A DNA stretch of 64,000 nucleotides from an uncultured Candidatus Saccharibacteria bacterium (GTDB lineage Bacteria; Patescibacteriota; Minisyncoccia; UBA6257; 2-01-FULL-56-20): the NCBI GenBank assembly GCA_964360585.1, contig CAYHXC010000002.1:5641-69640 (forward strand), given 5' to 3'. Shown piece by piece: positions 1-58,041 of this stretch (the stretch's first letter is position 1; every line of letters starts with the position of its first letter). Below the pieces are notes generated by a model. That model did not search any database. It saw only the letters and a program-made list of their open reading frames with translations, and was not told where the DNA came from. The position numbers and the translations under genes were made by a program.

Positions 1-372
1 CCCCTGCTCTTCGGTATAGGCATCGAGCAGTTCGTGTCCAAAGGGAAGTTCTTTCGCAATATCCTGTAACGCCTGGCCTTCGGCTAAGCGACCGTATTTT
101 TGATGCACATAGTTCAGATCGGAAGTTCGTCCTTCACCAAAATCATGGACGAGACAGAGAAATAAGAGCCGCTCTTTATTTGCTTCCGGAACAAGATGCG
201 ACATAACATAGCCGATCATCGTTGTCCGGAATAAGTGCTCTGCAACGGACTGCGTCCCTGTCCCTAAAAACCACAAACCAGACCGCGGCGTCTTGGCCAA
301 AATTCCCGACTCATACACAAAGTTAGCTAGGACTTTAAAATTTTTTGGAGATTTTCGTTTCTTTGAAGGCAT
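1..372 (-). CDS. HD-domain phosphohydrolase (YfbR-like 5'-deoxynucleotidase family), 3' end outside window
   Basis: Minus-strand frame translates MPSKKRKSPKNFKVLANFVYESGILAKTPRSGLWFLGTGTQSVAEHLFRTTMIGYVMSHLVPEANKERLLFLCLVHDFGEGRTSDLNYV..., an HD motif context. The ATG is at 372. The listed 68-aa ORF 335..541 is a different frame and likely spurious. Confidence 0.6.
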   Translation of the reverse strand, partial: MPSKKRKSPKNFKVLANFVYESGILAKTPRSGLWFLGTGTQSVAEHLFRTTMIGYVMSHLVPEANKERLLFLCLVHDFGEGRTSDLNYVHQKYGRLAEGQALQDIAKELPFGHELLDAYTEEQG

Positions 373-649
373 ATTCTAAAATGTGCGAACTTTCCAAACG
401 ACCGAGGTTTTTCCAGTGGTTTTTAAATACTTCCCAAGTTCTTTTTGCCAACTCGACCACTCCCGGTAACTGTCCAACCCCACCCGCAGTAGTATTTTCC
501 ATGTCCTTAGTATAACAGATATAATGATTTCTTGATTCCATGGCCTATTCCTTTTTCCGCTCTTGACACTATGTTACTTTTATGATTTTATTTAATCAGG
601 AAGACGGAGATTTTGAACACTAACCGCCTTTTGAAAAGAGAGGTTTTAT

Positions 650-1741
650 ATGAAGTTACAGAGAACGGCCTGGCACTTCCGAGTGTACATGAAGGCCTAC
701 GTCACCGATCGTTCCTGGCTCGATCATGGGAACATCGGTCCGGTAGAACGTCCGAGACTACTGGAAGAAGAGGCTTATCACGCATTTGAGGAGAAGATGC
801 GGAGTATGCCCCCCGAACAGCAGTTCGGACAGGAAACGCGAGATGAGTTACTGAAACTCGAGGGAGCGTGGCAGAAGGCCGACAATGACTGGCGCCAAGA
901 GCAGGAAGCGGCCTACACAGAAAGCAGATCTCGTGAAGTCCGGGAACGACTGTATGCGGGAAAGACCTCGCTCTGTCCGTACTTCTGGAGTGTCGTCTTC
1001 GGCCTGGTGATCTACTACGGCGTCGTCCGTAGTACCCGGCCTATCTGGCAGATGTTCAGTCGGATCGCCATCTCTGAAGCCGCCGCCCTGTCTGCCATAG
1101 GTCTTGTGATCGTAGCTTTCATCGGCTATGGAGCTTACGAAAGCTGGAACGAGATCCCGACTCCGAGACAATTCGTCACGGGTATCGTGGTCGACGTCCA
1201 GCGATCTCGACAGAGGAGTGCAGAAGATGCCGCGTCGCAAGCAGCTTACGAGGCACTGCGACTCCGAGAACGACAAGCGTGGGAAGTAGCCCATCCGGAA
1301 GAAGTGGCGCATCGTCACCAACAACAGGTGGCGTACGAGCAAGAACAGGAACAACGGAATGTAGCCCGGCGAGCCGCTATGTGGTCGAAATTCAAAAAAG
1401 ACTTCAAGCGACTCTCCGTGGAAGGTGGCCTGTTCCTCGCCAAGCTCCTCGCTCTTTTCGTCGGAGGATTGGCAGCTCTCGCCCTTCTGTTCTACATTCT
1501 CGGCCGGACTTTCACCTTTCTGGCATGGCTCCTTCGGCCCATCGCCAGACGATTGTCCTTCCGATCGGTGCCGGAAACGGGAATTCGCGCCTGGATAGTT
1601 CGCCAGCTACAGCGAGTGGTGGGTGCATGGGTAGCGTGGCAGCAGTTCTGGAAAGAAACTCGCGAGCTCGTCGGTGCATTTGCCTGGGCAAGATATAAGA
1701 AGCTCTGCCCGTACCTTGAAGTCGCGAACAGCGAGAACTAA
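650..1741 (+). CDS. hypothetical membrane protein (GC-rich, charged QE-rich segments plus TM helices)
   Basis: 363-aa ORF with several hydrophobic helices. GC is clearly higher than most of the window. Confidence 0.5.
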   Translation: MKLQRTAWHFRVYMKAYVTDRSWLDHGNIGPVERPRLLEEEAYHAFEEKMRSMPPEQQFGQETRDELLKLEGAWQKADNDWRQEQEAAYTESRSREVRERLYAGKTSLCPYFWSVVFGLVIYYGVVRSTRPIWQMFSRIAISEAAALSAIGLVIVAFIGYGAYESWNEIPTPRQFVTGIVVDVQRSRQRSAEDAASQAAYEALRLRERQAWEVAHPEEVAHRHQQQVAYEQEQEQRNVARRAAMWSKFKKDFKRLSVEGGLFLAKLLALFVGGLAALALLFYILGRTFTFLAWLLRPIARRLSFRSVPETGIRAWIVRQLQRVVGAWVAWQQFWKETRELVGAFAWARYKKLCPYLEVANSEN

Positions 1742-1856
1742 GTTTGGATCTTGCGAGCCTGCAACTCTTCGGAGTTGTGGGCTCTTTTAAATTTATATTT
1801 TCGAAATTTCTTTTTGCCTCAATTACTTGACCCTCCACTACAAACTCAAGAAAAAG

Positions 1857-1893
1857 AAAAACACCCTGACGAGTAAGGTGTTTTTCTTTTTGA
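1857..1893. terminator. hairpin terminator (aaaaacacc/ggtgttttt stem plus T-run)
   Basis: A 9-bp perfect stem with an 11-nt loop followed by ctttttg. It follows the 650..1741 gene. Confidence 0.45.
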
Positions 1894-2084
1894 TCGGGCT
1901 GCCCTCCTTCACTTATCAGTTTCGAAGGACACAGTAAAACTATGGCGGACAAGAAAGCTTCGGCAAAGCTGAGCTTAGCTCTGCGGGACAAGCGAACCCG
2001 AAGCCATTCTTCTTTTTGGTCGGGCTGCCCTCCTTCGTTAAAAACTACGGACGGGCAAGCCGGGAATGGTTCGATGAAGCTCAC

Positions 2085-2125
2085 CACAAGTCGAACCCGG
2101 TCTTTACGAACCTTCATCCCTCACC
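2085..2125 (-). pseudogene. degenerate copy of the tRNA-Pro 3' half (anticodon-stem/T-arm segment)
   Basis: Minus strand reads GGTTCGTAAAGACCGGGTTCGACTT. The intact tRNA-Pro has GGTTCGTAAAGACCGGGTTCAATTCCCGG. No cloverleaf can be closed. Confidence 0.5.
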
Positions 2126-2131
2126 TTTTGT

Positions 2132-2193
2132 TGGTCGGGGTACCCGGAATCGAACCGGGACCACACGCACCCTTGTCCCGTTAGAGAATGATC
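2132..2193 (-). pseudogene. tRNA 3' fragment (T-arm, acceptor 3' strand TACCCCG, discriminator A, encoded CCA) with no 5' half adjacent
   Basis: Minus strand reads ...GGTCCCGGTTCGATTCCGGGTACCCCGACCA. The T-stem is CCCGG/CCGGG with a TTCGATT loop. The matching CGGGGTA 5' strand lies on the other side of tRNA-Pro. Confidence 0.55.
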
Positions 2194-2195
2194 AG

Positions 2196-2266
2196 TCGGG
2201 CCGCCGGGAATTGAACCCGGTCTTTACGAACCCGAATCGCACGTACTACCGGTATACTACGGCCCG
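2196..2266 (-). tRNA. tRNA-Pro (anticodon CGG)
   Basis: Minus strand reads CGGGCCGTAGTATACCGGTAGTACGTGCGATTCGGGTTCGTAAAGACCGGGTTCAATTCCCGGCGGCCCGA. It has a 7-bp acceptor, anticodon loop TTCGGGT, T-stem CCGGG/CCCGG with TTCAATT loop, and no encoded CCA. Confidence 0.8.
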
Positions 2267-2316
2267 GTAATTCTCTAGCGGGATGAACGTGCGTACTACC
2301 ACTATACTATACCCCG
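2267..2316 (-). pseudogene. tRNA 5' fragment (acceptor 5' strand CGGGGTA plus D-arm) complementary to the 3' fragment at 2132..2193
   Basis: Minus strand reads CGGGGTATAGTATAGTGGTAGTACGCACGTTCATCC. The D-arm is near-identical to tRNA-Pro. CGGGGTA pairs perfectly with TACCCCG of the downstream fragment. Confidence 0.5.
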
Positions 2317-2546
2317 TATGTTTAAAAGGTGAGGGACAGGTCGCACGCCTGCCCGTCCGTAGTTCTGCATCGCAGAACGAAGGCGGGTACTACTCGCCTC
2401 GCTGACTCGGCCTTCGTAGCCACTCTGGCGAAGAAGACAACTCGAGCGAAGCGGGCCGGTATATCCCGACGTTACAGTCGGGATTCCGACTTCCTCATTA
2501 TATTCAAAATAGTGCGTCGGGACTACAGCTCGTTTGCAAATCAACT

Positions 2547-2939
2547 TTAGTGTCCCTTATTGTCCTCACTACCGTCAAGCTGAACAGGCTTACCCGAAGG
2601 AAAAGGAACATTCTCAGTAGAAACATTTTTCCATCTTCCTGATTCAACCGCTTGTCGTACGGCGGCCAGAGGATCTTCACGGAATGCCTGGCTCAGATGT
2701 TTCTCATCGTACCAAAGTGTATGTCCATCCGGAAATTCTTGGAATATTTCTTTCGTTACTCCATTACCGTCGAGCTCAAGAGTGCTTTTTATTTGAGTCG
2801 CAAGATCTTCAAAAACAACTCGTTCCAACCGACCGGTCGCTTGGTTAATCATGTGTGTGATCTTTATGCCTTCTTCGATTTTCATCAGATAGCGCCAGTG
2901 ACGCTCTTTCGGTTCACTCGGCTGTTCAAAAGGATTCAT
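2547..2939 (-). CDS. hypothetical protein
   Basis: 130-aa ORF with coding-like composition and no recognised motif. Confidence 0.5.
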   Translation of the reverse strand: MNPFEQPSEPKERHWRYLMKIEEGIKITHMINQATGRLERVVFEDLATQIKSTLELDGNGVTKEIFQEFPDGHTLWYDEKHLSQAFREDPLAAVRQAVESGRWKNVSTENVPFPSGKPVQLDGSEDNKGH

Positions 2940-2943
2940 AGAT

Positions 2944-4548
2944 TTATTTCACAAAAAATTTCTTTTTCATCTCCTCGTCGAGGCCGGACTGAAACTCCTC
3001 TTTGCGATTCTTAGCGGCAACCGCAATTTTTTTGAGCTCCGTATCGCTCATCTCTCCTAACGCCTTCACCCGATCTCTCAACCCCTCGGCCACATTCAAT
3101 TTCGGATCATCCAATACTTCTTCAAGAAGAATGGAGAGGATGAAGCCAACTCTGGGACTCGGCGGAATATCCAGAATACTCATCACATCGCTTCCGGTTA
3201 GTTTCAGCATTTTTGGCGAGATCGGATCATTCTTCACTTTTTCGATCATAAATAAAAGGTGCCGAATCTTGTACGGCACGGCCTTCGGTACACCCGAACC
3301 AATGCGATCAGCCTCACGCAATTTTATGAGATCATCAATATTTTCCGGACCAACCCGTGCTAAAAATCGTCGCACGCCGGCCTCGGTTACTTCGCCGACG
3401 TTGTAGTAAAACATGTGCGATCGGACAAGATGAGCCACATACTCCACAAAATCCTTGCCAAACCGAAGATCATCTAAAATCTGGAGCGTCATCTTCCCGC
3501 CAACCAACTCGTGATTATAGAACGTGGGCGGACTGCCTGGTCGCTTCGTTCGTGGCTTCCCCACATCATGCAGTAACGAGGCCACACGCACTTCGAGCGA
3601 ATAATTTTTCTTGGCCGAGTATTCCAGCGCTCGCAAGTTGTGTTCGAAAACTGTATAGATATGATGCCGCTCCTGGGATACGCCCAAACCTTCGCGCAAC
3701 TCCGGGAGAACATATTTCAAAAGATTCAGTTCTTCGAGAAGCACGATTCCCGCGGCCGCCCGATCAGACATGATAATTTTCACGAACTCGTCGCGGATAC
3801 GTTCCTTGGCAATCATTTCTAAAAGTCCTGCCTTGGCTTCAATCGCTTTCCGTGTTTCCGGGTCAATCTGAAAATCAAGTTCAGTCGCGAACCGCATCGC
3901 CCGCATTAAGCGCAGCGCGTCCTCGTTAAATCGTTCCTCCGGTTTCCCCACGGTCCGAATAGTTCGCGATTCCAGATCATCCTCCCCCCCAAATGGATCA
4001 ATAAGCTGGAAGGTTCTAGTTGTTCTATCTTCGCCGCTTGGCGAATCGTTCAATCGCTTCGCTCGTTCTAGCCGATTGCCTCTAACGACTCGAACGACTT
4101 CAACGTTTCGAACGTTTCTCACGTCCAACGCCATGGCGTTCACGGTGAAGTCGCGGCGCGAGAGATCCTCCTCAACCGTTTTTGCAAATCGCACTTCGTC
4201 CGGATGGCGCTTGTCGGTATACTTCCCTTCTTCGCGAAACGTCGTAACCTCAATAATTTTTAAGCGCGGATCTTCCGACTCGGTTTTTACACCAACCGTG
4301 CCAAACTGATTTTCGTAGACACTTTCGATAAATACTTTTTGAATCTGTTCCGGCGTGGCGTCGGTCGCAATATCCCAGTCTTTCGGCTCGCGCGCCAATA
4401 TGAGATCACGCACACAGCCACCAACCAGATAGGCCTGATACCCCACCTTAACAAGCGTATTTGCCGCTTCCTGAACCTCGTCGGGAATGTTCCTTAAATC
4501 TCTCATGGACATTGATACTACTATACGCAAAGCGGCGACGAATGACAA
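2944..4548 (-). CDS. cca: CCA-adding enzyme / tRNA nucleotidyltransferase with C-terminal HD domain
   Basis: Contains GGCVRDLILAREPKDWDIATDATPEQI (the PolyA_pol head with the DxD motif) and a C-terminal HD region (LLHDVGKP). The true start may be the internal Met at about 4512. Confidence 0.85.
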   Translation of the reverse strand: MSFVAALRIVVSMSMRDLRNIPDEVQEAANTLVKVGYQAYLVGGCVRDLILAREPKDWDIATDATPEQIQKVFIESVYENQFGTVGVKTESEDPRLKIIEVTTFREEGKYTDKRHPDEVRFAKTVEEDLSRRDFTVNAMALDVRNVRNVEVVRVVRGNRLERAKRLNDSPSGEDRTTRTFQLIDPFGGEDDLESRTIRTVGKPEERFNEDALRLMRAMRFATELDFQIDPETRKAIEAKAGLLEMIAKERIRDEFVKIIMSDRAAAGIVLLEELNLLKYVLPELREGLGVSQERHHIYTVFEHNLRALEYSAKKNYSLEVRVASLLHDVGKPRTKRPGSPPTFYNHELVGGKMTLQILDDLRFGKDFVEYVAHLVRSHMFYYNVGEVTEAGVRRFLARVGPENIDDLIKLREADRIGSGVPKAVPYKIRHLLFMIEKVKNDPISPKMLKLTGSDVMSILDIPPSPRVGFILSILLEEVLDDPKLNVAEGLRDRVKALGEMSDTELKKIAVAAKNRKEEFQSGLDEEMKKKFFVK

Positions 4549-4606
4549 AAGGATGACAACCAGAATTTAGGAATATTTTATGGATATAATCATGGGTAAA
4601 GATCTA

Positions 4607-4647
4607 AAAAGTAAATGACCCCTTCCGCGATGTATGCAGAAGGGGTC
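4607..4647. terminator. hairpin (gaccccttc ... gaaggggtc)
   Basis: A 9-bp perfect inverted repeat between cca and the GC-rich gene. Confidence 0.35.
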
Positions 4648-4694
4648 AAGGGGGTTGAGGGAACTAGGGGTCAGAGACCCAAGGTTCCCAGGGT

Positions 4695-5393
4695 TCAGGA
4701 ATTGCGAGAAAAGACCCGACGGCCGCCGTACCACCTGATGCCGCCCAAGGCACCGGCGCGCACGCCCCAGCCGTCATCACGCCAATCGACGTACACGGAA
4801 CGCAGCACGCTATTCACGTCGCGAACGTAGAAGATGTTCGCCCACCCGTTGTTGAGCAGGGCACCTTCTCCACCGTTCGACTGGGCAACCATGAGCCGCC
4901 AGATTTCCGAGAGAGTAACTTCCGCGACAGCTTCGCCACCGAGGTCGGCGATGACCTCGCTGTCGTTGGCGCTCTGGGTCAGCGTGAGTGGAACGAGCAA
5001 GCCGTCCGGCACGTCTTCCTCCACTTTGCTGGCAAACCAGCTAATGAAGTTCAAGCCATGCTCGACCATCTTCACACCGGACGACTTCGAGAAGAAAGTA
5101 TCATCCGCCTTGAACGGGCAGGATTCGACGGGCTTCGGCGCGACGGGACGGAGCACCTTGCGGATACGGGGTTTCTTCGGGCGGGTGCGGATGGCATCCA
5201 CCATTACGACGATCGCGGCCTTGGTCTCCTTTATCACAAACTGGCGATCAACCCTACTGAGAGCATTGAAACCTGTTTGATGAGCGACCAGTTCGCCCAC
5301 CAGTCTTGACGTTTGTGGATCCTGTTCTGCGGTCATAGCTTTCCTCCTTTTTGACCGTTTCAACAAAGTCCTGCTGTTGGGCTTGGCCTTCAT
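4695..5393 (-). CDS. hypothetical protein (GC-rich, likely acquired)
   Basis: 232-aa ORF with GC near 60 percent, well above its neighbours. The probable start is MTAEQDP at about 5336. Confidence 0.5.
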   Translation of the reverse strand: MKAKPNSRTLLKRSKRRKAMTAEQDPQTSRLVGELVAHQTGFNALSRVDRQFVIKETKAAIVVMVDAIRTRPKKPRIRKVLRPVAPKPVESCPFKADDTFFSKSSGVKMVEHGLNFISWFASKVEEDVPDGLLVPLTLTQSANDSEVIADLGGEAVAEVTLSEIWRLMVAQSNGGEGALLNNGWANIFYVRDVNSVLRSVYVDWRDDGWGVRAGALGGIRWYGGRRVFSRNS

Positions 5394-5508
5394 GGTTTCG
5401 CCACAGCTCGTAAAAGCTCGATTCTTCGGGCTCCTATGAGCTATAGCGAAATCTCGCTGGTTATCAAAGATCGACTACAATATAACAAATAAACGTTATT
5501 ATGTCAAA

Positions 5509-5793
5509 TCAGCGGATTTGAGCGCCAAACTCAGTCTTTGATTTTTCCTCTAAAGCTTTGTGCATCACGTCTACTTCTTCGTTGGTAAGTGTTCGGTCGT
5601 TGTTTCTATAGATAACGCGATAGGTGTAGCTTTTCTTATCTTTTCCAAACTTTTCCTCATTTTCATATTGATCCAGGAGTTCTACCTGCTCCACTAAATC
5701 TCCAGCCACATCACGGACTAAATCAAAATAATTATTTGGCGCGAAAGTTTTTGGCGAGCAAGCAAGGTGAGAGGTCTTGCGAGGCGAAGCCAT
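5509..5793 (-). pseudogene. duplicated, diverged 3' end of pheS (FDX-ACB-like C-terminal ~85 aa)
   Basis: Translation ...PKTFAPNNYFDLVRDVAGDLVEQVELLDQYENEEKFGKDKKSYTYRVIYRNNDRTLTNEEVDVMHKALEEKSKTEFGAQIR is near-identical to the pheS C-terminus at 6871..7125. Nucleotide identity is about 78 percent and extends about 40 bp past the stop. Confidence 0.7.
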
Positions 5794-5919
5794 GACCGCG
5801 CCTACATGAGCAAGATATAAAAATCATAGCACGCTTGTCTAAAAAGAATGAGCCTCCGAGCGTGGAACGCGCGGAGGCTCAAGGTTGCGAGAGGTTCAAC
5901 CTCTCAAATGAACAAGGTT

Positions 5920-6756
5920 CTACTCGGACTTCCGGGCAGAGGCGACACCAAGAAGAACGTAACGGACGTCGTCCCAGAAGCTGCCGACGAACAGACCATC
6001 CGAGCCGAAGTAACCAACAACGACCCGGATCCCGTCCGAATCCAGAGACATCGTACGGACGTAGAGATTCGGGAATAGCCGCTCTCCCGTGACCAAGAAG
6101 TACAAGACCACGGCATAGACGAGTTCGCACGCCCGGGGCACCTCTTCGCACTCGGAGAGCAACGCCTTCTGGTCATCGAAATTCTTCGACGTCGAGCCCA
6201 CGACCGCTTCTTTGCGAATCAGGTACCAACGGACCTCGAGCTTCTCGTCCTTCGCGAACGACTGGTTGTTGTACCACGCATCCTTGTAGGAGTAGAACGT
6301 CTTCGGCTTCTTGTTGGGTGCTTTTGCGCGCACGTCCAAGATCGTCATCGGAAATCCGGCAACCAGGATGTGCGTATCCTTGCACTTCTCCAGCACGACT
6401 TCCGAGAATGGGATCTCGGCAAGCAACGCGAGCTGCTCCTCGGTGTACGCTGCGCCAAATTGACGCACGACTTCCTCGATGCCGAGGTAGTTTTTGCCCA
6501 TAATCTCGCGGGCGCGGATCTGGGACGGCGTGGGTTTGTAGTTCACGATCACGGCAGAGATTGAGGCGATGATGCCGTTCCCCGCAACAAGCGCGACTAC
6601 CTTCTCGAACAGCTCTTCGTCGTGGGCGAGTTTCGCCCAGAAGTTCTGCCCAGCTCCGACCTTACGGCCGGTGACGACTGCTTCGTGGATGAGTCCGTTA
6701 TCCTTTCCGAAATTTTCACAGCTCTCATCCAGACGCACCATGGTATTTGCTGTCAT
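5920..6756 (-). CDS. hypothetical protein (GC-rich)
   Basis: 278-aa ORF lying between the pheS fragment and intact pheS. GC is elevated. Confidence 0.55.
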   Translation of the reverse strand: MTANTMVRLDESCENFGKDNGLIHEAVVTGRKVGAGQNFWAKLAHDEELFEKVVALVAGNGIIASISAVIVNYKPTPSQIRAREIMGKNYLGIEEVVRQFGAAYTEEQLALLAEIPFSEVVLEKCKDTHILVAGFPMTILDVRAKAPNKKPKTFYSYKDAWYNNQSFAKDEKLEVRWYLIRKEAVVGSTSKNFDDQKALLSECEEVPRACELVYAVVLYFLVTGERLFPNLYVRTMSLDSDGIRVVVGYFGSDGLFVGSFWDDVRYVLLGVASARKSE

Positions 6757-6870
6757 GACACACCTCCTAGGGATAGTTGGTGTCGGATCAATTTCCGACG
6801 GAATTTGAGTAAAACCCTATATATTTCAAAGGACGACAATATTTTAACAAATAAGTACTAAGATGTCAAG

Positions 6871-8031
6871 TTAGCGAATTTGGGCGCCAAACTCGGTTTT
6901 CGATTTTTCCTCAAGCGCCTTATGAAGCACGTCTACCTCTTCATTCGTCAATGTTCGATCACTACTGCGATAGATAACACGATAGGCATAACTCTTTTTA
7001 TCGGCGCCAAATTTCTCCGCGTTTTCATACTCATCAATCAACTCCACTTGCTCCACCAGATCACCCGCCACGTCGCGAACAAGATCAAAGTAATTATTCG
7101 GCGCAAATGTTTTTGGCACGACGAAAGAAATATCGCGAGTCACCGGCGGATACTTACTCACCTCCTGGAACTTCGTTCCCATCGTGAGCTGCTTCGTCAC
7201 CCGCTCGTCTTTGGACCAGAGAAGCCGAATATCCGGCAGTTCCATGCTACTAATAGCGAGCCGGTCCAAGCCGAATCCAAAGGCCCAACCGTTGTAGCCT
7301 TCGAGACCGAAGTTTTTCAAAACACTCTTTTTCGGCATTCCCCCGCCAAGCAACTCAATCCACTGGCCATTAATCTGAATCTCTACTTCGAGCGACGGAT
7401 CGGTATAAGGAAATGTATCCGGATTAAAACGATACACCGTCGACTCACCGAAAATTCCTTTTACAATCTGACTCAACACATTTTTAAGATCATCCAACAC
7501 CATCATTCCCTGGCTATCAGGCTGGAGATACAAACCACCGAACTGATGGAAGATGTTCATATGGCGACGATCGATCTCGTCCTTGCGATAGACCTTGCCG
7601 TAACAAACCACACCGAGCGGTTCCTGTTTGGCAATCTTTGCTTTGATCTCGGGAAGATTTAAATAGTAGTACCACATGACGGTGTCATGCGTACGCAAAA
7701 TATTTTTCGGATCGGCATAGTAGGTATCCGAAGCGCTTCGCGCCGGGTGGTCCGGAGCAAAGTCGAACAGATCAAAACTAACATCGACCGGCACAATCTC
7801 CGGAATAATGATGTTGTCAAAGTTCGCAAGCGCCGGAACCCGCTTTACCGATTCCACAATTTCGTGGAGCGGACTTGTCGTCGTGCGCGACAGATCGTCC
7901 ATCGCCAAGTACCGCTTAATCCGTCCGGCCTCGGCGTCAGTGCGCGGCTCGAGCGTCTTCCGAACCTGGTTTTCGTTGTCTCGATCAATCGTATATTCGG
8001 CTGACTGGGTAAGGGGCGAAGTGAAATCCAT
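6871..8031 (-). CDS. pheS: phenylalanine--tRNA ligase alpha subunit
   Basis: Carries the class II aaRS core (FPYTDPSLEVEI, GWAFGFGLDRLA) and ends ...SKTEFGAQIR. Confidence 0.95.
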   Translation of the reverse strand: MDFTSPLTQSAEYTIDRDNENQVRKTLEPRTDAEAGRIKRYLAMDDLSRTTTSPLHEIVESVKRVPALANFDNIIIPEIVPVDVSFDLFDFAPDHPARSASDTYYADPKNILRTHDTVMWYYYLNLPEIKAKIAKQEPLGVVCYGKVYRKDEIDRRHMNIFHQFGGLYLQPDSQGMMVLDDLKNVLSQIVKGIFGESTVYRFNPDTFPYTDPSLEVEIQINGQWIELLGGGMPKKSVLKNFGLEGYNGWAFGFGLDRLAISSMELPDIRLLWSKDERVTKQLTMGTKFQEVSKYPPVTRDISFVVPKTFAPNNYFDLVRDVAGDLVEQVELIDEYENAEKFGADKKSYAYRVIYRSSDRTLTNEEVDVLHKALEEKSKTEFGAQIR

Positions 8032-8145
8032 CCCGTTAGAAGCAGATCGCGATCAACGCATCCACACAATTATGTAATTTCAGGTTCGACATTTCATTAA
8101 AAAGCCCAGGGAAGCCAACTAAGCGATCGCGGCTTCTAACGGGAT
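8027..8145. promoter_or_regulatory. long-range inverted repeat (cccgttagaagc-gatcgcg ... cgatcgcggcttctaacggg) abutting the pheS start codon
   Basis: On the pheS mRNA, ...cttctaacgggATG lies directly before the start codon. It is complementary to a segment about 100 nt upstream. Confidence 0.5.
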
Positions 8146-8216
8146 CCATGGTTTTGATTGTAATCAAAGCAAGCCGCGAAAACAAACTTTTTACGTCGGG
8201 AGTAATTGACCGCCTC

Positions 8217-10259
8217 TTACTGGGTCTTCAGATTAAAACACGCCCGAAATATGTCTAAAGATTCCCCAGGTTTTTGGAGACAGCGGATTCCTTGCTTCGC
8301 ATAACCATTCTTTAAAGAAAACGAGAGGGCGTTGGTAAAAGATTTCTCCGCTCCACTTCGGTCTCCTATGCCAACGTGAGCCAGTCCTAAACGCACCCAC
8401 AGATCGGCCACATCTTTGCGATTCTCATCTTTATACGGATTAATCCAAGCGATTGATCGAAAGGCCTCCGGTGTGTGCTCGACTACGATTGGCTCGAGAA
8501 AATCAATGATGGCTTGGTAGTTCTTTTCTTCAAGATATAGATTGGAAAGCTCGCGGTAGGCAGAAAAAAGCATGAAATGGTCGTGGTCCGTGGCGGTCAT
8601 AAAATCAGTTTCAGCTGCCGCCAAATCTCCCTCCAACTTACGAGCCTGTCCGCGTAGATAGAAAAGATAGGGATCCTTCGGTCGTGTCCTCAAGGCTTCC
8701 GTAATTTCTTGGAACGCCCGCAATCGATACAGAACTCTCTCTTTTTCATCTGGCACGCCAGAGGCCAGCCGCAGAGAAAGAATAGCCAAGTCGCGGTGGT
8801 AGAGCGGATTCCCGGCATCGCTCCGCACAGCCGCGTCGTACTTTTCGTAGGCCGCACGCATATCACCTTCCGCCAGCGCCATTGAAGCCTCGGTAAAATG
8901 AGCTTCGGCAAGAACACTCATACATCCAAAAATGAGCGCGATGAAACTGAAAACGATCACGAAAAGATTGAAGATAAACGAAAACTGCGTTTTATCTTTT
9001 TTATTTTCCGAGGAAAGATAGAGACGTAACACAATTCCAGCAACAATAAAGAAAAGGAAAACATCGGCCGGAAATATCCAGTCGGCATTAACCATGTTTT
9101 GAAATACGAGAGCCAGAAAACTGCCGACGACCACGTAGAGCATCTGTTCTTCGTGAAGTGAATGATGATTTCTGTTTTTTGTTACCGAAAAAACCATCAC
9201 GAGCAAAGCCGCGAGGAAAAGAACCAGGACCACTCCTCCAAAAATCCCTAACTCCACGAACCCGCGAGCGAGAATATTGTGCGGATCGGTGGTATAGAAC
9301 GTCAGACGATCACGGTACTCGGTCATGGCATCGCCGAAACTGCCCCAACCGACACCGAAGAGTGGACTATACGAAAATATGCGCGCTGACTGATAGAGAT
9401 ACTCAAGGCGGGCAGTCAGTCCGTTTTCCGAAGCGCTTTCCTCTTTAAAAATATCGGTTGGTTGGATCACGCTCGTCCCCGAAGCAACGCTTTGGGGATG
9501 GTTCTTAAACTGAAACGCGGCCGTAGCGAGGAGAATGCTGACCGCCATCAGTAAGAAAAGCGTTGCGCTGCGCCGCCAGATTTTTGAGAACGGCCAGCGG
9601 AGCAAAAACATTGTGATAAGAAACGATCCCAGGAAAGCCAGCGCCGCGCCGCGGGCAAACGTAAAGAAGAGGGTACAAAAAAGAAAAATATTTATGGCAG
9701 CATACCACCACTTTCGGGACTGCTTCGATTCATAGAAAAGAAAACTAGTCGCAAAAAAAAGTGACGGGAGCATAAAGCCGGCAAAAGCATTTTGTTGATA
9801 GAAAACTGATCCTAAGCGAAAGAAAGGATGGGCGCCAAAAAATATGTACAAGCCATAGAGCGAGAAAAGTATCGTGCCCCACAGTAGCCAGGAGAAAAAA
9901 CGCTCAATCTTCGCGAACTCCTTGATAATCGAAGGTGTTTTTATAAATACAATAAAAGCGGAAAAGAATATAAGGAATAACCGCGCTGTGGTATACCGGT
10001 CAAACGAAAAAAATCCCGAGATAAAAATGGAAACAAGAAAGAGAATACACGAGAAAAATACTGTTTTATAAAGACGGCCTCCCAAGAAAACCTCTTCTCG
10101 AAAAAAAAGTACGAGAAGAGTCACAAGCGTAAAAATCATAGCTTGCGCCATCGGTTCCATTCCGCCCATAAAAACGGTCGGCAAAAGAATGAGGGCGACG
10201 ATGGCCACAAAACCAACGTCTTCTTTTGACCACGCCGCCCATAATTTTAAAAAATTCAT
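8217..10259 (-). CDS. polytopic membrane protein, O-antigen-ligase-like (Wzy_C-type) with C-terminal TPR repeats
   Basis: 680-aa ORF with about 12 TM helices followed by a TPR-like C-terminal region. It is paralogous in architecture to 58277..60502. Confidence 0.55.
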   Translation of the reverse strand: MNFLKLWAAWSKEDVGFVAIVALILLPTVFMGGMEPMAQAMIFTLVTLLVLFFREEVFLGGRLYKTVFFSCILFLVSIFISGFFSFDRYTTARLFLIFFSAFIVFIKTPSIIKEFAKIERFFSWLLWGTILFSLYGLYIFFGAHPFFRLGSVFYQQNAFAGFMLPSLFFATSFLFYESKQSRKWWYAAINIFLFCTLFFTFARGAALAFLGSFLITMFLLRWPFSKIWRRSATLFLLMAVSILLATAAFQFKNHPQSVASGTSVIQPTDIFKEESASENGLTARLEYLYQSARIFSYSPLFGVGWGSFGDAMTEYRDRLTFYTTDPHNILARGFVELGIFGGVVLVLFLAALLVMVFSVTKNRNHHSLHEEQMLYVVVGSFLALVFQNMVNADWIFPADVFLFFIVAGIVLRLYLSSENKKDKTQFSFIFNLFVIVFSFIALIFGCMSVLAEAHFTEASMALAEGDMRAAYEKYDAAVRSDAGNPLYHRDLAILSLRLASGVPDEKERVLYRLRAFQEITEALRTRPKDPYLFYLRGQARKLEGDLAAAETDFMTATDHDHFMLFSAYRELSNLYLEEKNYQAIIDFLEPIVVEHTPEAFRSIAWINPYKDENRKDVADLWVRLGLAHVGIGDRSGAEKSFTNALSFSLKNGYAKQGIRCLQKPGESLDIFRACFNLKTQ

Positions 10260-39935: not shown

Positions 39936-40074
39936 TCAACTTAAGATTGCCACGCTCCGCTCGCAATGACAAGCGAAAATCAGCCAGATCCAAGTTGTAA
40001 ATTCTTTCTCATTACTTTTCTTCGTGCGTAATTCGAGGCGGCAACGAGCATTCATTTTACTTAGATAAGAAATT

Positions 40075-40166
40075 GAGCAGATTCAAGGCTTGGCCGAGTA
40101 CCGCAACCGAGATGTATTCAACATACACCGAGGGCGGAACGCAGGCCGTAACGCAGAATCTGCCCA
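40075..40166. ncRNA. copy A of a repeated structured element (conserved acaaggcttg..gagtaccg..cgagggcggaacgca..gtaacgcag framework with four covarying helices)
   Basis: Lies immediately 3' of the 40183..40695 gene. Pairings are P1 gcagattc/gaatctgc, P2 ggcc/ggcc, P3 atgtat/atacac and P4 ccgc/gcgg. Confidence 0.6.
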
Positions 40167-45510: not shown

Positions 45511-45609
45511 GAATGGCCATCGGCAAGGCTTGATTGAGTACCGTAACCGAGGTGTATTTAAAATACATCGAGGGCGGAACGCAAATCGTAACGCTGCAGA
45601 TGGCTATTC
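45511..45609. ncRNA. copy B of the repeated structured element
   Basis: Lies immediately 3' of pilC. Pairings are P1 ggccatc/gatggc, P2 gatt/aatc and P3 gtattt/aaatac. Confidence 0.6.
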
Positions 45610-50690: not shown

Positions 50691-50699
50691 AAAATTTGA

Positions 50700-50809
50700 G
50701 TTTAAAAACGATGAGCTACAAGGCTTGGTCGAGTACCGCAAGGGAGCTGTATTAAGCATACAGCGACTGCGGCACGGAGACCGTAACGCAGTAGATCACG
50801 TTTTTAAAC
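50700..50809. ncRNA. copy C of the repeated structured element
   Basis: Lies immediately 3' of the 50815..51132 gene. Pairings are P2 ggtc/gacc and P3 ctgtat/atacag. Confidence 0.6.
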
Positions 50810-50814
50810 TCAAA

Positions 50815-51132
50815 TTACGGTAGGAAGGGATTATCTTTGCCGACCACCCCCTCCCCCGGCGGCTGAACATAGGTTGTTCGCGTAGTGAAAGCCGGATTCT
50901 GAAAAACTTTAGTATTCAGTTCAATCTGGGCCACCTGGACAGTTTGTCGAAAACTCGCCGGTCCAACGGTATTAATAATCTCGGGATTTTTAAAGAAAAT
51001 GAGATAGACGGCCAAAATAATCGTGACGATAATCACCAGCCAGCCGATTAAGACGATCACGCTCCCCTGGTCCCGTTCTTCTTCGACAACAATAGCCATA
51101 TCAGATAGTAGAAATTCGACTGAGAATCCCAA
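50815..51132 (-). CDS. small single-TM protein (pilus-locus associated)
   Basis: 105-aa ORF with a TM helix VIVLIGWLVIIVTIILAVYLIFF. Confidence 0.4.
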   Translation of the reverse strand: MGFSVEFLLSDMAIVVEEERDQGSVIVLIGWLVIIVTIILAVYLIFFKNPEIINTVGPASFRQTVQVAQIELNTKVFQNPAFTTRTTYVQPPGEGVVGKDNPFLP

Positions 51133-57345: not shown

Positions 57346-57650
57346 CCTTAAAACGCGAAATGCTTCGTTACGGCCTGCGCTCCGCCCTCACATAAATGTG
57401 AACTTCCGCCGAAGGCGGATCCTCCTCCGGAGGACGCTTACGGTGCTCGGCCAAGCCTCGCATTTCATCATTTTATGGCTAAAGTAAAATACACTATCCC
57501 TTCAACATAAAACACCCCGTCTATAGGGGTGTTTTGATTGTTGAATTAAATTCAGATCCAGAATTGTTGATTTTTGGATTTTCTACAAGGCGGCAGTGAG
57601 TACCGAAGCGAGACAGGGAGTTATCAACGGAACTTGATTCTCAAATTTTA

Positions 57651-57760
57651 TTGATAACGCGATGAAATACAAGGCTTGACCGAGTACCGCCCCGAGCAAT
57701 ATTGAAACATATTGTAAGGGCGGAACGCAGGTCGTAACGCAGTAGTTCGCGCGTTATCAA
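57651..57760. ncRNA. copy D of the repeated structured element
   Basis: Lies immediately 3' of hup. Pairings are P1 ttgataacgcg/cgcgttatcaa (11 bp), P2 gacc/ggtc, P3 caatat/atattg and P4 ccgcc/ggcgg. Confidence 0.6.
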
Positions 57761-57765
57761 TAAAA

Positions 57766-58041
57766 TCACGCAACGGCGTCTTTAAGCGCCTTCCCCGCCT
57801 TAAACTTCGGCTTCACCGACGCAGCAATATGAATTTTCGCGCCAGTCTTTGGGTTCACACCCATGCGAGCGGCCCGCTTCGCGACTCGGAACGTTCCAAA
57901 GCCAGCAATGGCCACTTCTTCGCCGCGGCCAAGCGTCTTCGTTATAATTTCAAACACCGCTTCAACAGTTTTTTTGGCGTGACTCTTCACCTCCACGCCA
58001 GTCGCCTTCATGAGAGCCTCGGCCAATCCTTCTTTTGTCAT
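57766..58041 (-). CDS. hup: HU/IHF-family DNA-binding protein
   Basis: Contains GFGTFRVAKRAARMGVNPKTGAKIHIAASVKPKFKAGKALKDAV. The start is reassigned to MTKEGLAEAL; the ORF track's upstream extension is unlikely. Confidence 0.85.
   Translation of the reverse strand: MTKEGLAEALMKATGVEVKSHAKKTVEAVFEIITKTLGRGEEVAIAGFGTFRVAKRAARMGVNPKTGAKIHIAASVKPKFKAGKALKDAVA

Follow-up and report, generated by a model that had tools for sequence, protein, structure and literature searches.

Two probable diversity-generating retroelement target modules beside a duplicated pheS 3′ end in a Saccharibacteria genome

Introduction

How does the 3′ end of a housekeeping gene come to stand twice on one bacterial contig, with two GC-rich genes beside it? 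The locus that raises this question lies in a 64-kb stretch of DNA (hereafter the window) from an uncultured Candidatus Saccharibacteria bacterium (contig CAYHXC010000002.1 of assembly GCA_964360585.1), where a 2.3-kb islet separates pheS, a phenylalanyl-tRNA synthetase gene, from cca, the gene for the CCA-adding enzyme. A first-pass annotation of the sequence had taken the islet for the remnant of an integrative element that brought its own pheS end. Our analysis places the two genes, which we call geneA and geneB, among the target genes of diversity-generating retroelements (DGRs), and we consider it likely that the islet consists of two orphan (or remote) DGR target modules that were put between pheS and cca by recombination and not by an integrase.

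In a complete DGR, a reverse transcriptase (RT) and its Avd partner copy a template repeat (TR) and randomise the positions that are templated by adenine. The resulting cDNA overwrites the last ~115–120 nt of a target gene, the variable repeat (VR), and thereby diversifies a ligand-binding surface. The DGRs of Patescibacteria, also called the candidate phyla radiation (CPR), were reportedly treated by Paul et al. in 2017. Patescibacterial DGRs form a cellular clade (cellular DGR clade 2 of Roux et al. 2021, PMC8144416; also PMC11661182).

Results

The pheS 3′ end is duplicated around one of two GC-rich genes

Numbering follows the window, and every feature of the islet lies on the minus strand. 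Read 5′ to 3′ along that strand, the order is the pheS-like gene, geneA, a 94-codon open reading frame (ORF), geneB and cca (Table 1). The direct repeat spans 292 nt without gaps at 74.7% identity. Each copy comprises pheS codons 306–386, the stop codon and 44–45 nt of downstream sequence, with 247 of the 292 nt being pheS coding sequence, and the 81-residue translations of the two copies are identical at 73 positions. GeneA lies between the repeats and geneB outside them. The first-pass annotation had seen this duplication of the pheS end with a stretch beyond it; we revise its identity downward from ~78% and shift its ends slightly.

The repeat is the strongest self-match of the whole window (E about 1e-59) and is not due to chance. 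Four Hainich groundwater samples, assembled independently, show the same layout (the whole islet in L001–L003 and part of it in L004; the prefix L designates sequences compared with the window), and the islet is therefore real rather than an assembly artefact. As noted in the first pass, both genes are GC-rich: the GC content is 0.57 in geneA and 0.58 in geneB, compared to 0.47 for the window overall, and at third codon positions it reaches 0.76 and 0.71, respectively.

geneA and geneB resemble target genes of complete DGRs

Neither geneA nor geneB has a match in Pfam, PHROGs, PADLOC or NCBIfam, and BLASTP finds no significant similarity between the two. We found 194 homologues of geneA, all unannotated, and 165 of geneB, all unnamed; every one of them is from Patescibacteria. 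The nearest homologue of geneA (L084, 79% amino acid identity) lies inside a complete DGR cassette.

Among the 79 genome loci with geneA homologues that we fetched, about 30 carry a second copy of the gene's last ~120 nt, 470–530 nt downstream. In 20 geneA-family pairs, 309 of 323 mismatches fall at an A of the downstream copy, which identifies that copy as the TR and the 3′ end of the gene as the VR. Genes for bAvd and RT adjoin the geneA homologue in about 30 of the 79 loci, and the RT of these cassettes carries the motif YVRYTDDF; over both families, the loci with an RT beside the homologue include L056, L084, L167 and L170. A complete cassette runs from the target gene with its 3′ VR through a hairpin, the TR and bAvd (on the opposite strand) to the RT; across homologous loci of the two families the TR stands about 350–500 nt downstream of the target gene. 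VR/TR pairs also accompany geneB homologues: in each of three loci (L085, L167/L168 and L170), 20 of 21 mismatches are at TR adenines. bAvd (PF22296) adjoins homologues in L084, L085, L167 and L170, and an RVT_1 RT is present in the geneB-family loci L167, L168 and L170.

Compared with orthologous TRs, the VRs of the window are changed at 63–69% of A sites and at 14–21% of other sites. For geneA against the L084 TR the counts are 19 of 30 A sites and 19 of 90 others; for geneB against the L085 TR they are 20 of 29 and 12 of 84. The VR 3′ ends, ...GCCCGGAAGT in geneA and ...GTCTTTTCTCGCAA in geneB, agree with the GC-rich VR ends of their families, and the two hairpins with U-runs listed in Table 1 lie just downstream of the VRs and are conserved in L084, L085 and L166. 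On these sequence comparisons, geneA and geneB are members of DGR variable-protein families A and B, respectively. This assignment, together with the blank PADLOC result, replaces the suggestion that the two genes have an unknown function and possibly form a defence or toxin-antitoxin pair.

AlphaFold models of the products have a mean pLDDT of 86 (geneA) and 80 (geneB). The top PDB matches of the geneA model are EgtB, SenA, FGE and TvpA of Treponema denticola, and that of the geneB model is the C-type lectin MCL; all are weak and fall short of significance (E > 0.04), although they come from the families that one would expect for variable proteins of DGRs. The models, which are confident by their pLDDT, are consistent with a C-type-lectin/FGE-like fold rather than proof of one.

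Several features of these families deserve a brief mention. The 5′ untranslated region (UTR) of geneB (5394–5450, minus strand) contains a long hairpin (z = −5.6) with no Rfam match; a hairpin of this type also seems possible, from different sequence, in the corresponding UTRs of L085 and L166. The geneB-type cassette of L085 looks like a decayed DGR: between 11489 and 13846, its RT ORF stops after about 74 codons and is followed by a 662-amino-acid protein of near-identical cadherin-like repeats. Tandem geneA-family paralogues, two to four in number, occur in L062 (4203–7484) and in L009, L011, L022, L034, L041, L043, L047, L058 and L073; the array of four belongs to a 496-kb contig that bears the label Pirellulales.

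High GC content is a trait of the target genes

The high GC of the islet, pointed out in the first-pass annotation, could be read as a mark of foreign DNA. We compared composition in 32 complete DGR cassettes (among L005–L085, L167 and L170). Target genes have a GC content of 0.56 ± 0.04 in all hosts examined, whereas avd (0.41) and RT (0.40) are near the host flanks (0.43, range 0.32–0.58). The GC of RT follows that of the flanks with r = 0.84, and that of avd is close to that of RT on average; for target genes the correlation with the flanks is r = 0.47. The enrichment extends over the whole target gene and not the VR alone, and coding-strand adenine is 0.23 in targets compared to 0.30–0.33 in RT and avd. 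Because targets are GC-rich whatever the GC of their host, the GC jump at the islet is a family trait, and the argument from composition to foreign origin does not stand.

The islet carries targets but no DGR machinery

Searches for machinery covered the window and a further 6.3 kb upstream that we recovered from another assembly, about 70 kb in all. In this span, tblastn with two RTs and two Avds gave no match, and blastn with both VRs gave no TR-like copy. No ORF between or near the repeats encodes a site-specific recombinase, as judged from the ORF list and from Pfam and NCBIfam matches of the neighbouring genes. The first pass was thus right to call the islet free of an integrase near the repeats, and it is free of an RT as well.

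Each module retains a 5′ UTR, a gene and downstream hairpins and is cut off downstream of the terminator hairpin. The geneA module, homologous to the 5′ part of the complete cassette in L084, ends about 200 nt short of the expected TR position, and the homology of the geneB module to L085 halts ahead of the expected TR start. Since the roughly 70 kb contain no TR, avd or RT, geneA and geneB are either frozen former targets or serve as remote targets for a DGR in another part of the genome. Orphan or remote copies are common in the geneA family, given that about 60% of its loci likewise show no DGR within 6 kb.

Could both genes still be active remote targets, and the islet the working part of a split DGR? 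DGRs can have remote targets (PMC8144416), geneA and geneB both retain a conserved VR 3′ end followed by hairpins, as complete cassettes do, and both VRs show the A-site substitution pattern. However, TR, Avd and RT are missing from about 70 kb of a genome that probably measures less than 1 Mb, the VR sequences are identical among independent assemblies, two VR types would need two TRs, and the lack of a nearby DGR is shared with the majority of geneA-family loci given above. We regard active remote targeting as possible but doubtful. It would be compatible with the insertion history that we propose below.

The islet is an insertion between two ancestral neighbours

Like the mitochondrial enzyme, the phenylalanyl-tRNA synthetase of the window is a single chain with a class II core and a C-terminal FDX-ACB domain; the best NCBIfam matches (pheS_mito and "PheS-related mystery ligase SrmL") fall under their cutoffs. 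We fetched 80 homologous pheS loci with 64–82% identity to the window PheS, and all 80 share the length of the gene. In 14 related loci, cca begins within about 10–55 nt of the pheS stop. These include the closest relatives, L086 and L087 (82% PheS identity), in which cca directly follows pheS. None of the 80 loci carries its pheS 3′ end twice, and in none does pheS adjoin a homologue of geneA or geneB. Since pheS and cca are contiguous in L086, L087 and 12 further relatives, the 2.3 kb is an insertion at the pheS 3′ end, in agreement with the first-pass annotation, and gene order in these genomes indicates that cca is the ancestral immediate downstream neighbour of pheS.

Gene order also indicates that the pheS-cca gap is a permissive, recurrently variable spot. 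Ten relatives (L088, L093, L094, L097, L100–L102, L105, L107 and L110) hold unrelated genes in it; these inserts span 0.26–3.3 kb and consist of hypothetical genes with host-like GC and no repeats. In L172, the gap contains a gene for an IS200/IS605-type Y1 transposase (7290–7952).

Both pheS ends are followed by a promoter, and one abuts a truncated DGR spacer

The 44–45 nt after each pheS stop are predicted to form a strong sigma-70 promoter, and the geneA promoter begins 1 nt past the pheS stop. Equivalent promoters stand upstream of the geneA and geneB homologues in L084, L085 and L166, which are loci without pheS. The two promoters of the window are identical to each other at 32 of 44 positions, compared to 11–19 of 44 for the promoters of these homologues; the duplicated unit is therefore the pheS 3′ end plus the promoter. 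Past the 3′ edge of the repeat, each copy gives way to the 5′ UTR that is usual for the family of the gene that follows.

The inner boundary, at the 5′ edge of the orphan copy, is sharp. Here the post-geneA spacer can be aligned with L084 and L166 as far as TCGCC (5763), and the pheS homology sets in at GCCAAAAAC (5755), with 3–7 nt of microhomology at the join (GCC, 5755–5763). The 9-nt GCCAAAAAC is shared by the 5′ edges of both repeats, and this same edge is where the homology to the DGR spacer stops; the nonamer fits an attachment (att) core and a microhomology junction equally well. As aligned, a truncated DGR spacer meets the orphan pheS end in an illegitimate junction.

The two genes also occur side by side on L166 (1–1807), a 1.8-kb contig from the same aquifer, which holds a geneA homologue (52% amino acid identity), the same spacer, a promoter and a geneB homologue (68%) with no pheS piece between them, and which ends where the TR would start. 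The pairing of geneA and geneB thus exists independently of pheS. The two target types occur as a pair in at least two genomes (the window and L166). Elsewhere, no pheS remnant was found beside geneA or geneB homologues, and a 20-nt resemblance in L085 is due to chance.

These junctions bear on the reading given by the first-pass annotation, in which a site-specific integrative element entered with its own pheS 3′ end and then decayed, shedding the integrase and most of its gene content until the pheS ends remained as attL and attR. Such an element would account for direct repeats that consist of a gene 3′ end with the intact gene preserved, for copies diverged as expected of an element-borne replacement end and for the nonamer that both repeats share at their 5′ edges; the pattern of identities also hints weakly at the orphan copy being the native one. 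Yet there is no integrase in about 70 kb, and all that lies between the repeats is a truncated DGR target module whose truncation point is the repeat boundary. GeneB stands outside the repeats and adjoins a geneA homologue in L166 without any pheS piece. Use of the site does not recur in the 80 pheS loci, where the cargo of the gap is unrelated and repeat-free, and other cassettes duplicate sequence beside different host genes (see below), so the footprint is not site-specific. Given the missing integrase, the lack of recurrent site use and the illegitimate inner junction, we do not retain the att interpretation and consider an integrative element very unlikely.

The two pheS ends diverged under constraint

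The orphan and intact pheS ends differ at saturated synonymous sites (pS, the proportion of synonymous differences, is 0.89) with a nonsynonymous divergence (dN) of only 0.085, and show no indels and no stops. In nucleotide sequence, the fragment is 75% identical both to the intact end and to L086/L087, and the intact end is 72–73% identical to L086/L087, which makes the three effectively equidistant. This is unlike a relic that evolved neutrally in place for that long. Saturated synonymous sites with low dN most likely mean that the copies diverged mostly as parts of functional genes in separate lineages, and one pheS end probably came from a related lineage, at a distance similar to that of the nearest sampled species. 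In this respect the first-pass annotation, which read the divergence as acquisition from a different lineage, is likely correct.

At the protein level the fragment is 84% identical to L086/L087 and 72–79% identical to the others, mirroring the profile of the native middle of the gene, while the intact end is 80–85% identical to all relatives compared. Private amino acid substitutions number four in the fragment and 0–1 in the intact end. The donor search also returned many short FDX-ACB proteins, which we considered as further orphan fragments and rejected: on the three long contigs examined, they are frameshifts or a tandem duplication. Those of L171 and L172 are from frameshifted long-read assemblies, and most others are on contigs under 5 kb. 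L173, a contig of a metagenome-assembled genome at NCBI, has a perfect 776-nt tandem duplication across the pheS 3′ end (6179–7727); with 100% identity between its copies it is probably an assembly artefact and not a parallel to the window.

Divergence also bears on an alternative history in which the repeat arose in place. A tandem duplication of a 1362-nt unit, from pheS codon 306 to the post-geneA spacer, would have been followed by loss of the second geneA between the similar promoters, and the pheS fragment would have been kept as a useful 94-amino-acid FDX-ACB protein. This would explain why both copies share the same stop-to-promoter junction, why the window promoters resemble one another far more than they do those of L084, L085 and L166, why the 94-codon ORF is intact with low dN, and why intact copy and fragment are mutually closest at the protein level (90%). 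However, saturated synonymous sites imply an age similar to the split from L086/L087, and none of the 80 relatives shares the arrangement. The start codon and first 13 codons of the 94-codon ORF derive from the DGR spacer, which has no ATG in L084, and the fragment is preceded by a strong terminator-like hairpin and then by no more than a 9/12 promoter match. The four fragment-specific changes, set against 0–1 in the intact copy, suggest relaxed constraint. We find duplication in place unlikely.

Direct repeats also bracket complete DGR cassettes

Of 29 complete geneA-type cassettes, six have direct repeats on either side (37–203 nt, 79–100% identity; Table 1), compared to 1 hit in 118 pairs in a control with mismatched flanks. 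The bracketed units are whole ~3-kb DGR cassettes (target, TR, avd and RT). Three of the cassettes (L012, L026 and L051) were examined for the source of the repeat, which in all three corresponds to one end of a neighbouring host gene. We considered tRNA genes as the source of the flanking repeats, and none of the repeats is one.

Insertion with long target duplication was reportedly treated by Nobusato et al. in 2000. It has been described for restriction-modification (RM) genes without mobility genes (Furuta et al. 2010, PMC2853133). The likeness lies in a short segment without mobility genes that one genome has and its relatives lack, flanked by direct repeats, tens to hundreds of bp long, of a target sequence that is otherwise single-copy and often a gene end; at pheS these repeats are longer than 30 bp and there is no transposase or integrase. 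Near-identity of the repeats is not seen, as the pheS copies are 75% identical with saturated synonymous sites and have diverged under purifying selection. The cargo also differs, being a DGR cassette or target module and not an RM system, and part of the repeat is a promoter, which the nearest relatives lack at their empty site. Among footprints of this kind, the pheS duplication is the most diverged example.

On a more sweeping interpretation, Patescibacterial DGR cassettes and target modules would be mobile units that insert beside housekeeping genes, and two insertions of this sort would have left the pheS islet as their decayed trace. Each insertion may then duplicate a long, variable length (37–292 nt) of the adjacent gene end, the cassette's own RT or a recombination route shared with RM systems could be involved, and GC-rich, adenine-poor targets would be a consequence or a requirement of adenine-directed mutagenesis. 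We regard general mobility of this kind as unlikely to explain the islet. DGR evolutionary units, including the cellular Patescibacterial clade, have been described as mostly inherited vertically (PMC8144416); the flanking duplications suggest that DGR cassettes are occasionally relocated.

Other features of the window

Two gene starts in Table 1 need comment. The geneB coordinates run from the first ATG, whereas gene callers and homologues place the start at the ATG at 5336, which gives 213 amino acids; the real start of the CCA-adding enzyme gene is probably the ATG at about 4512. Beyond a tRNA-Pro gene (2195–2266), which is the only match of an Rfam scan of positions 1–9000, lies a further GC-rich ORF (650–1741, plus strand; GC 0.56) of 363 amino acids with predicted hydrophobic stretches and no family match. 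Self-comparison also reveals a dispersed repeat family of about 70–130 nt at 70–85% identity (40070–40156, 45524–45604, 50692–50819 and 57643–57770).

Table 1. Coordinates of the islet and its neighbouring genes (window positions), followed by the direct repeats that bracket DGR cassettes in other genomes (positions in the respective locus).
Feature	Position	Strand	Description
pheS-like gene	6871–8031	−	386 amino acids, intact; Pfam tRNA-synt_2d (2e-51), FDX-ACB (8e-25)
Repeat copy 1	6826–7117	−	pheS codons 306–386, stop, 44–45 nt with promoter
geneA promoter	6841–6869	−	sigma-70-type TTGACA-17 nt-TAAAAT, extended −10 TG; 11/12 match
geneA	5920–6756	−	278 amino acids; DGR variable-protein family A (by sequence comparison); VR equivalent about 5927–6046
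geneA module	5763–6766	−	gene start region, gene, hairpins and 157-nt post-gene spacer; 80% nucleotide identity to L084 9991–11006
Post-geneA hairpin and U-run	5849–5881	−	z = −5.9; terminator-like, or hairpin typical downstream of a DGR VR
Smaller post-geneA hairpin	about 5889–5905	−	
Repeat copy 2 (orphan pheS 3′ end)	5464–5755	−	codons 306–386, stop, 44–45 nt with promoter
94-codon ORF	5509–5793	−	encloses orphan pheS end; Pfam FDX-ACB match; intact
geneB promoter	5479–5507	−	sigma-70-type TTGACA-17 nt-TATATT
geneB	4695–5393	−	232 amino acids from first ATG; DGR variable-protein family B (by sequence comparison); VR equivalent 4696–4808
geneB module	4600–5484	−	5′ UTR hairpin, gene, downstream hairpins; 75% nucleotide identity to L085 9855–10738
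Post-geneB hairpin and U-run	4616–4648	−	z = −6.7
CCA-adding enzyme gene (cca)	2944–4548	−	Pfam PolyA_pol, PolyA_pol_RNAbd, HD
L012 flanking repeats	5713–5792 / 8674–8753		first 80 nt of downstream peptidase-like gene
L018 flanking repeats	5607–5677 / 8858–8928		
L026 flanking repeats	5458–5531 / 8468–8541		3′ end of ftsZ-like gene
L033 flanking repeats	1625–1826 / 4869–5069		
L050 flanking repeats	773–840 / 4170–4234		
L051 flanking repeats	5625–5661 / 8684–8720		3′ end of RNase III-like gene

Discussion

Recombination that joined two DGR target modules to pheS seems to us the likely origin of the islet. The account starts from what was directly observed: family membership, the absence of machinery, the insertion relative to relatives, the positions of the junctions and the pattern of divergence. 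We infer the order of events and which pheS copy is native.

In the history that we propose, a DGR target module would have stood directly at the pheS stop in the recipient and in a related donor lineage alike. DNA of the donor would have entered with one end joined through homology and the other joined illegitimately via microhomology, linking the post-geneA spacer to pheS codon 306. This could have happened by a single crossover with a small circle, adding geneA, or with a linear fragment that was anchored in geneB or cca and replaced TR, avd and RT. Both routes yield exactly the observed structure, and we make no choice between circle and linear fragment. Either would leave two non-identical pheS ends, each with a promoter: one would complete the working gene and drive geneA, and the relic end would supply the promoter of geneB.

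Several points weigh against this history. The junction between pheS stop and promoter is the same in both copies, so both lineages must have inherited a module at the pheS stop, and none of the 80 sampled relatives shows one there. Parsimony sites do not decide which copy is native (2–4 group the full-length gene with the fragment, 2–3 the fragment with L086/L087 and none the full-length gene with L086/L087). A search of 5.8 billion proteins with the fragment did not find the donor, the best non-self match being 80% identical. The 94-codon ORF is intact, and a function of the fragment is possible. Published long target duplications are mostly 87–100% identical, compared to 75% for the pheS repeats. 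For the nature of the modules themselves, the structural matches of the predicted models to C-type-lectin/FGE-like proteins lack statistical significance (E > 0.04).

Homology-facilitated illegitimate recombination during natural transformation is an established concept. The proposed recombination is similar in that one anchor is homologous, the other end uses 3–7 nt of microhomology and DNA is gained; it differs in that the origin of the islet is deduced from its sequence alone. Elements that replace gene 3′ ends, such as islands in tRNA or protein genes, likewise leave a duplicated gene end, an intact working gene and diverged copies, but the islet lacks their recombinase, recurrent site use and element body. 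With respect to Patescibacterial and CPR DGRs that have variable proteins of C-type-lectin fold (Mtd, TvpA), the homologous loci show the full DGR anatomy, and the copies in the window still have the VR framework, A-site substitutions and hairpins. Unlike those systems, the window holds targets only, of two unrelated types in tandem, and neither family is modelled in Pfam, NCBIfam or PHROG.

The assignment by sequence gives two widespread, unannotated Patescibacterial families (at least 194 and 165 clusters) a putative role as DGR-diversified surface or ligand-binding proteins. DGR target genes can persist without nearby retroelement machinery. In these genomes, a GC jump is a property of DGR target genes and should be read with caution as a sign of horizontal transfer. 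For specialists, the points of interest are the GC enrichment confined to targets and the long duplications that flank cassettes, the latter being a first handle on the movement of cellular DGR cassettes. The pheS islet itself offers a concrete, datable example of variable-protein modules being shuffled between related ultra-small bacteria.

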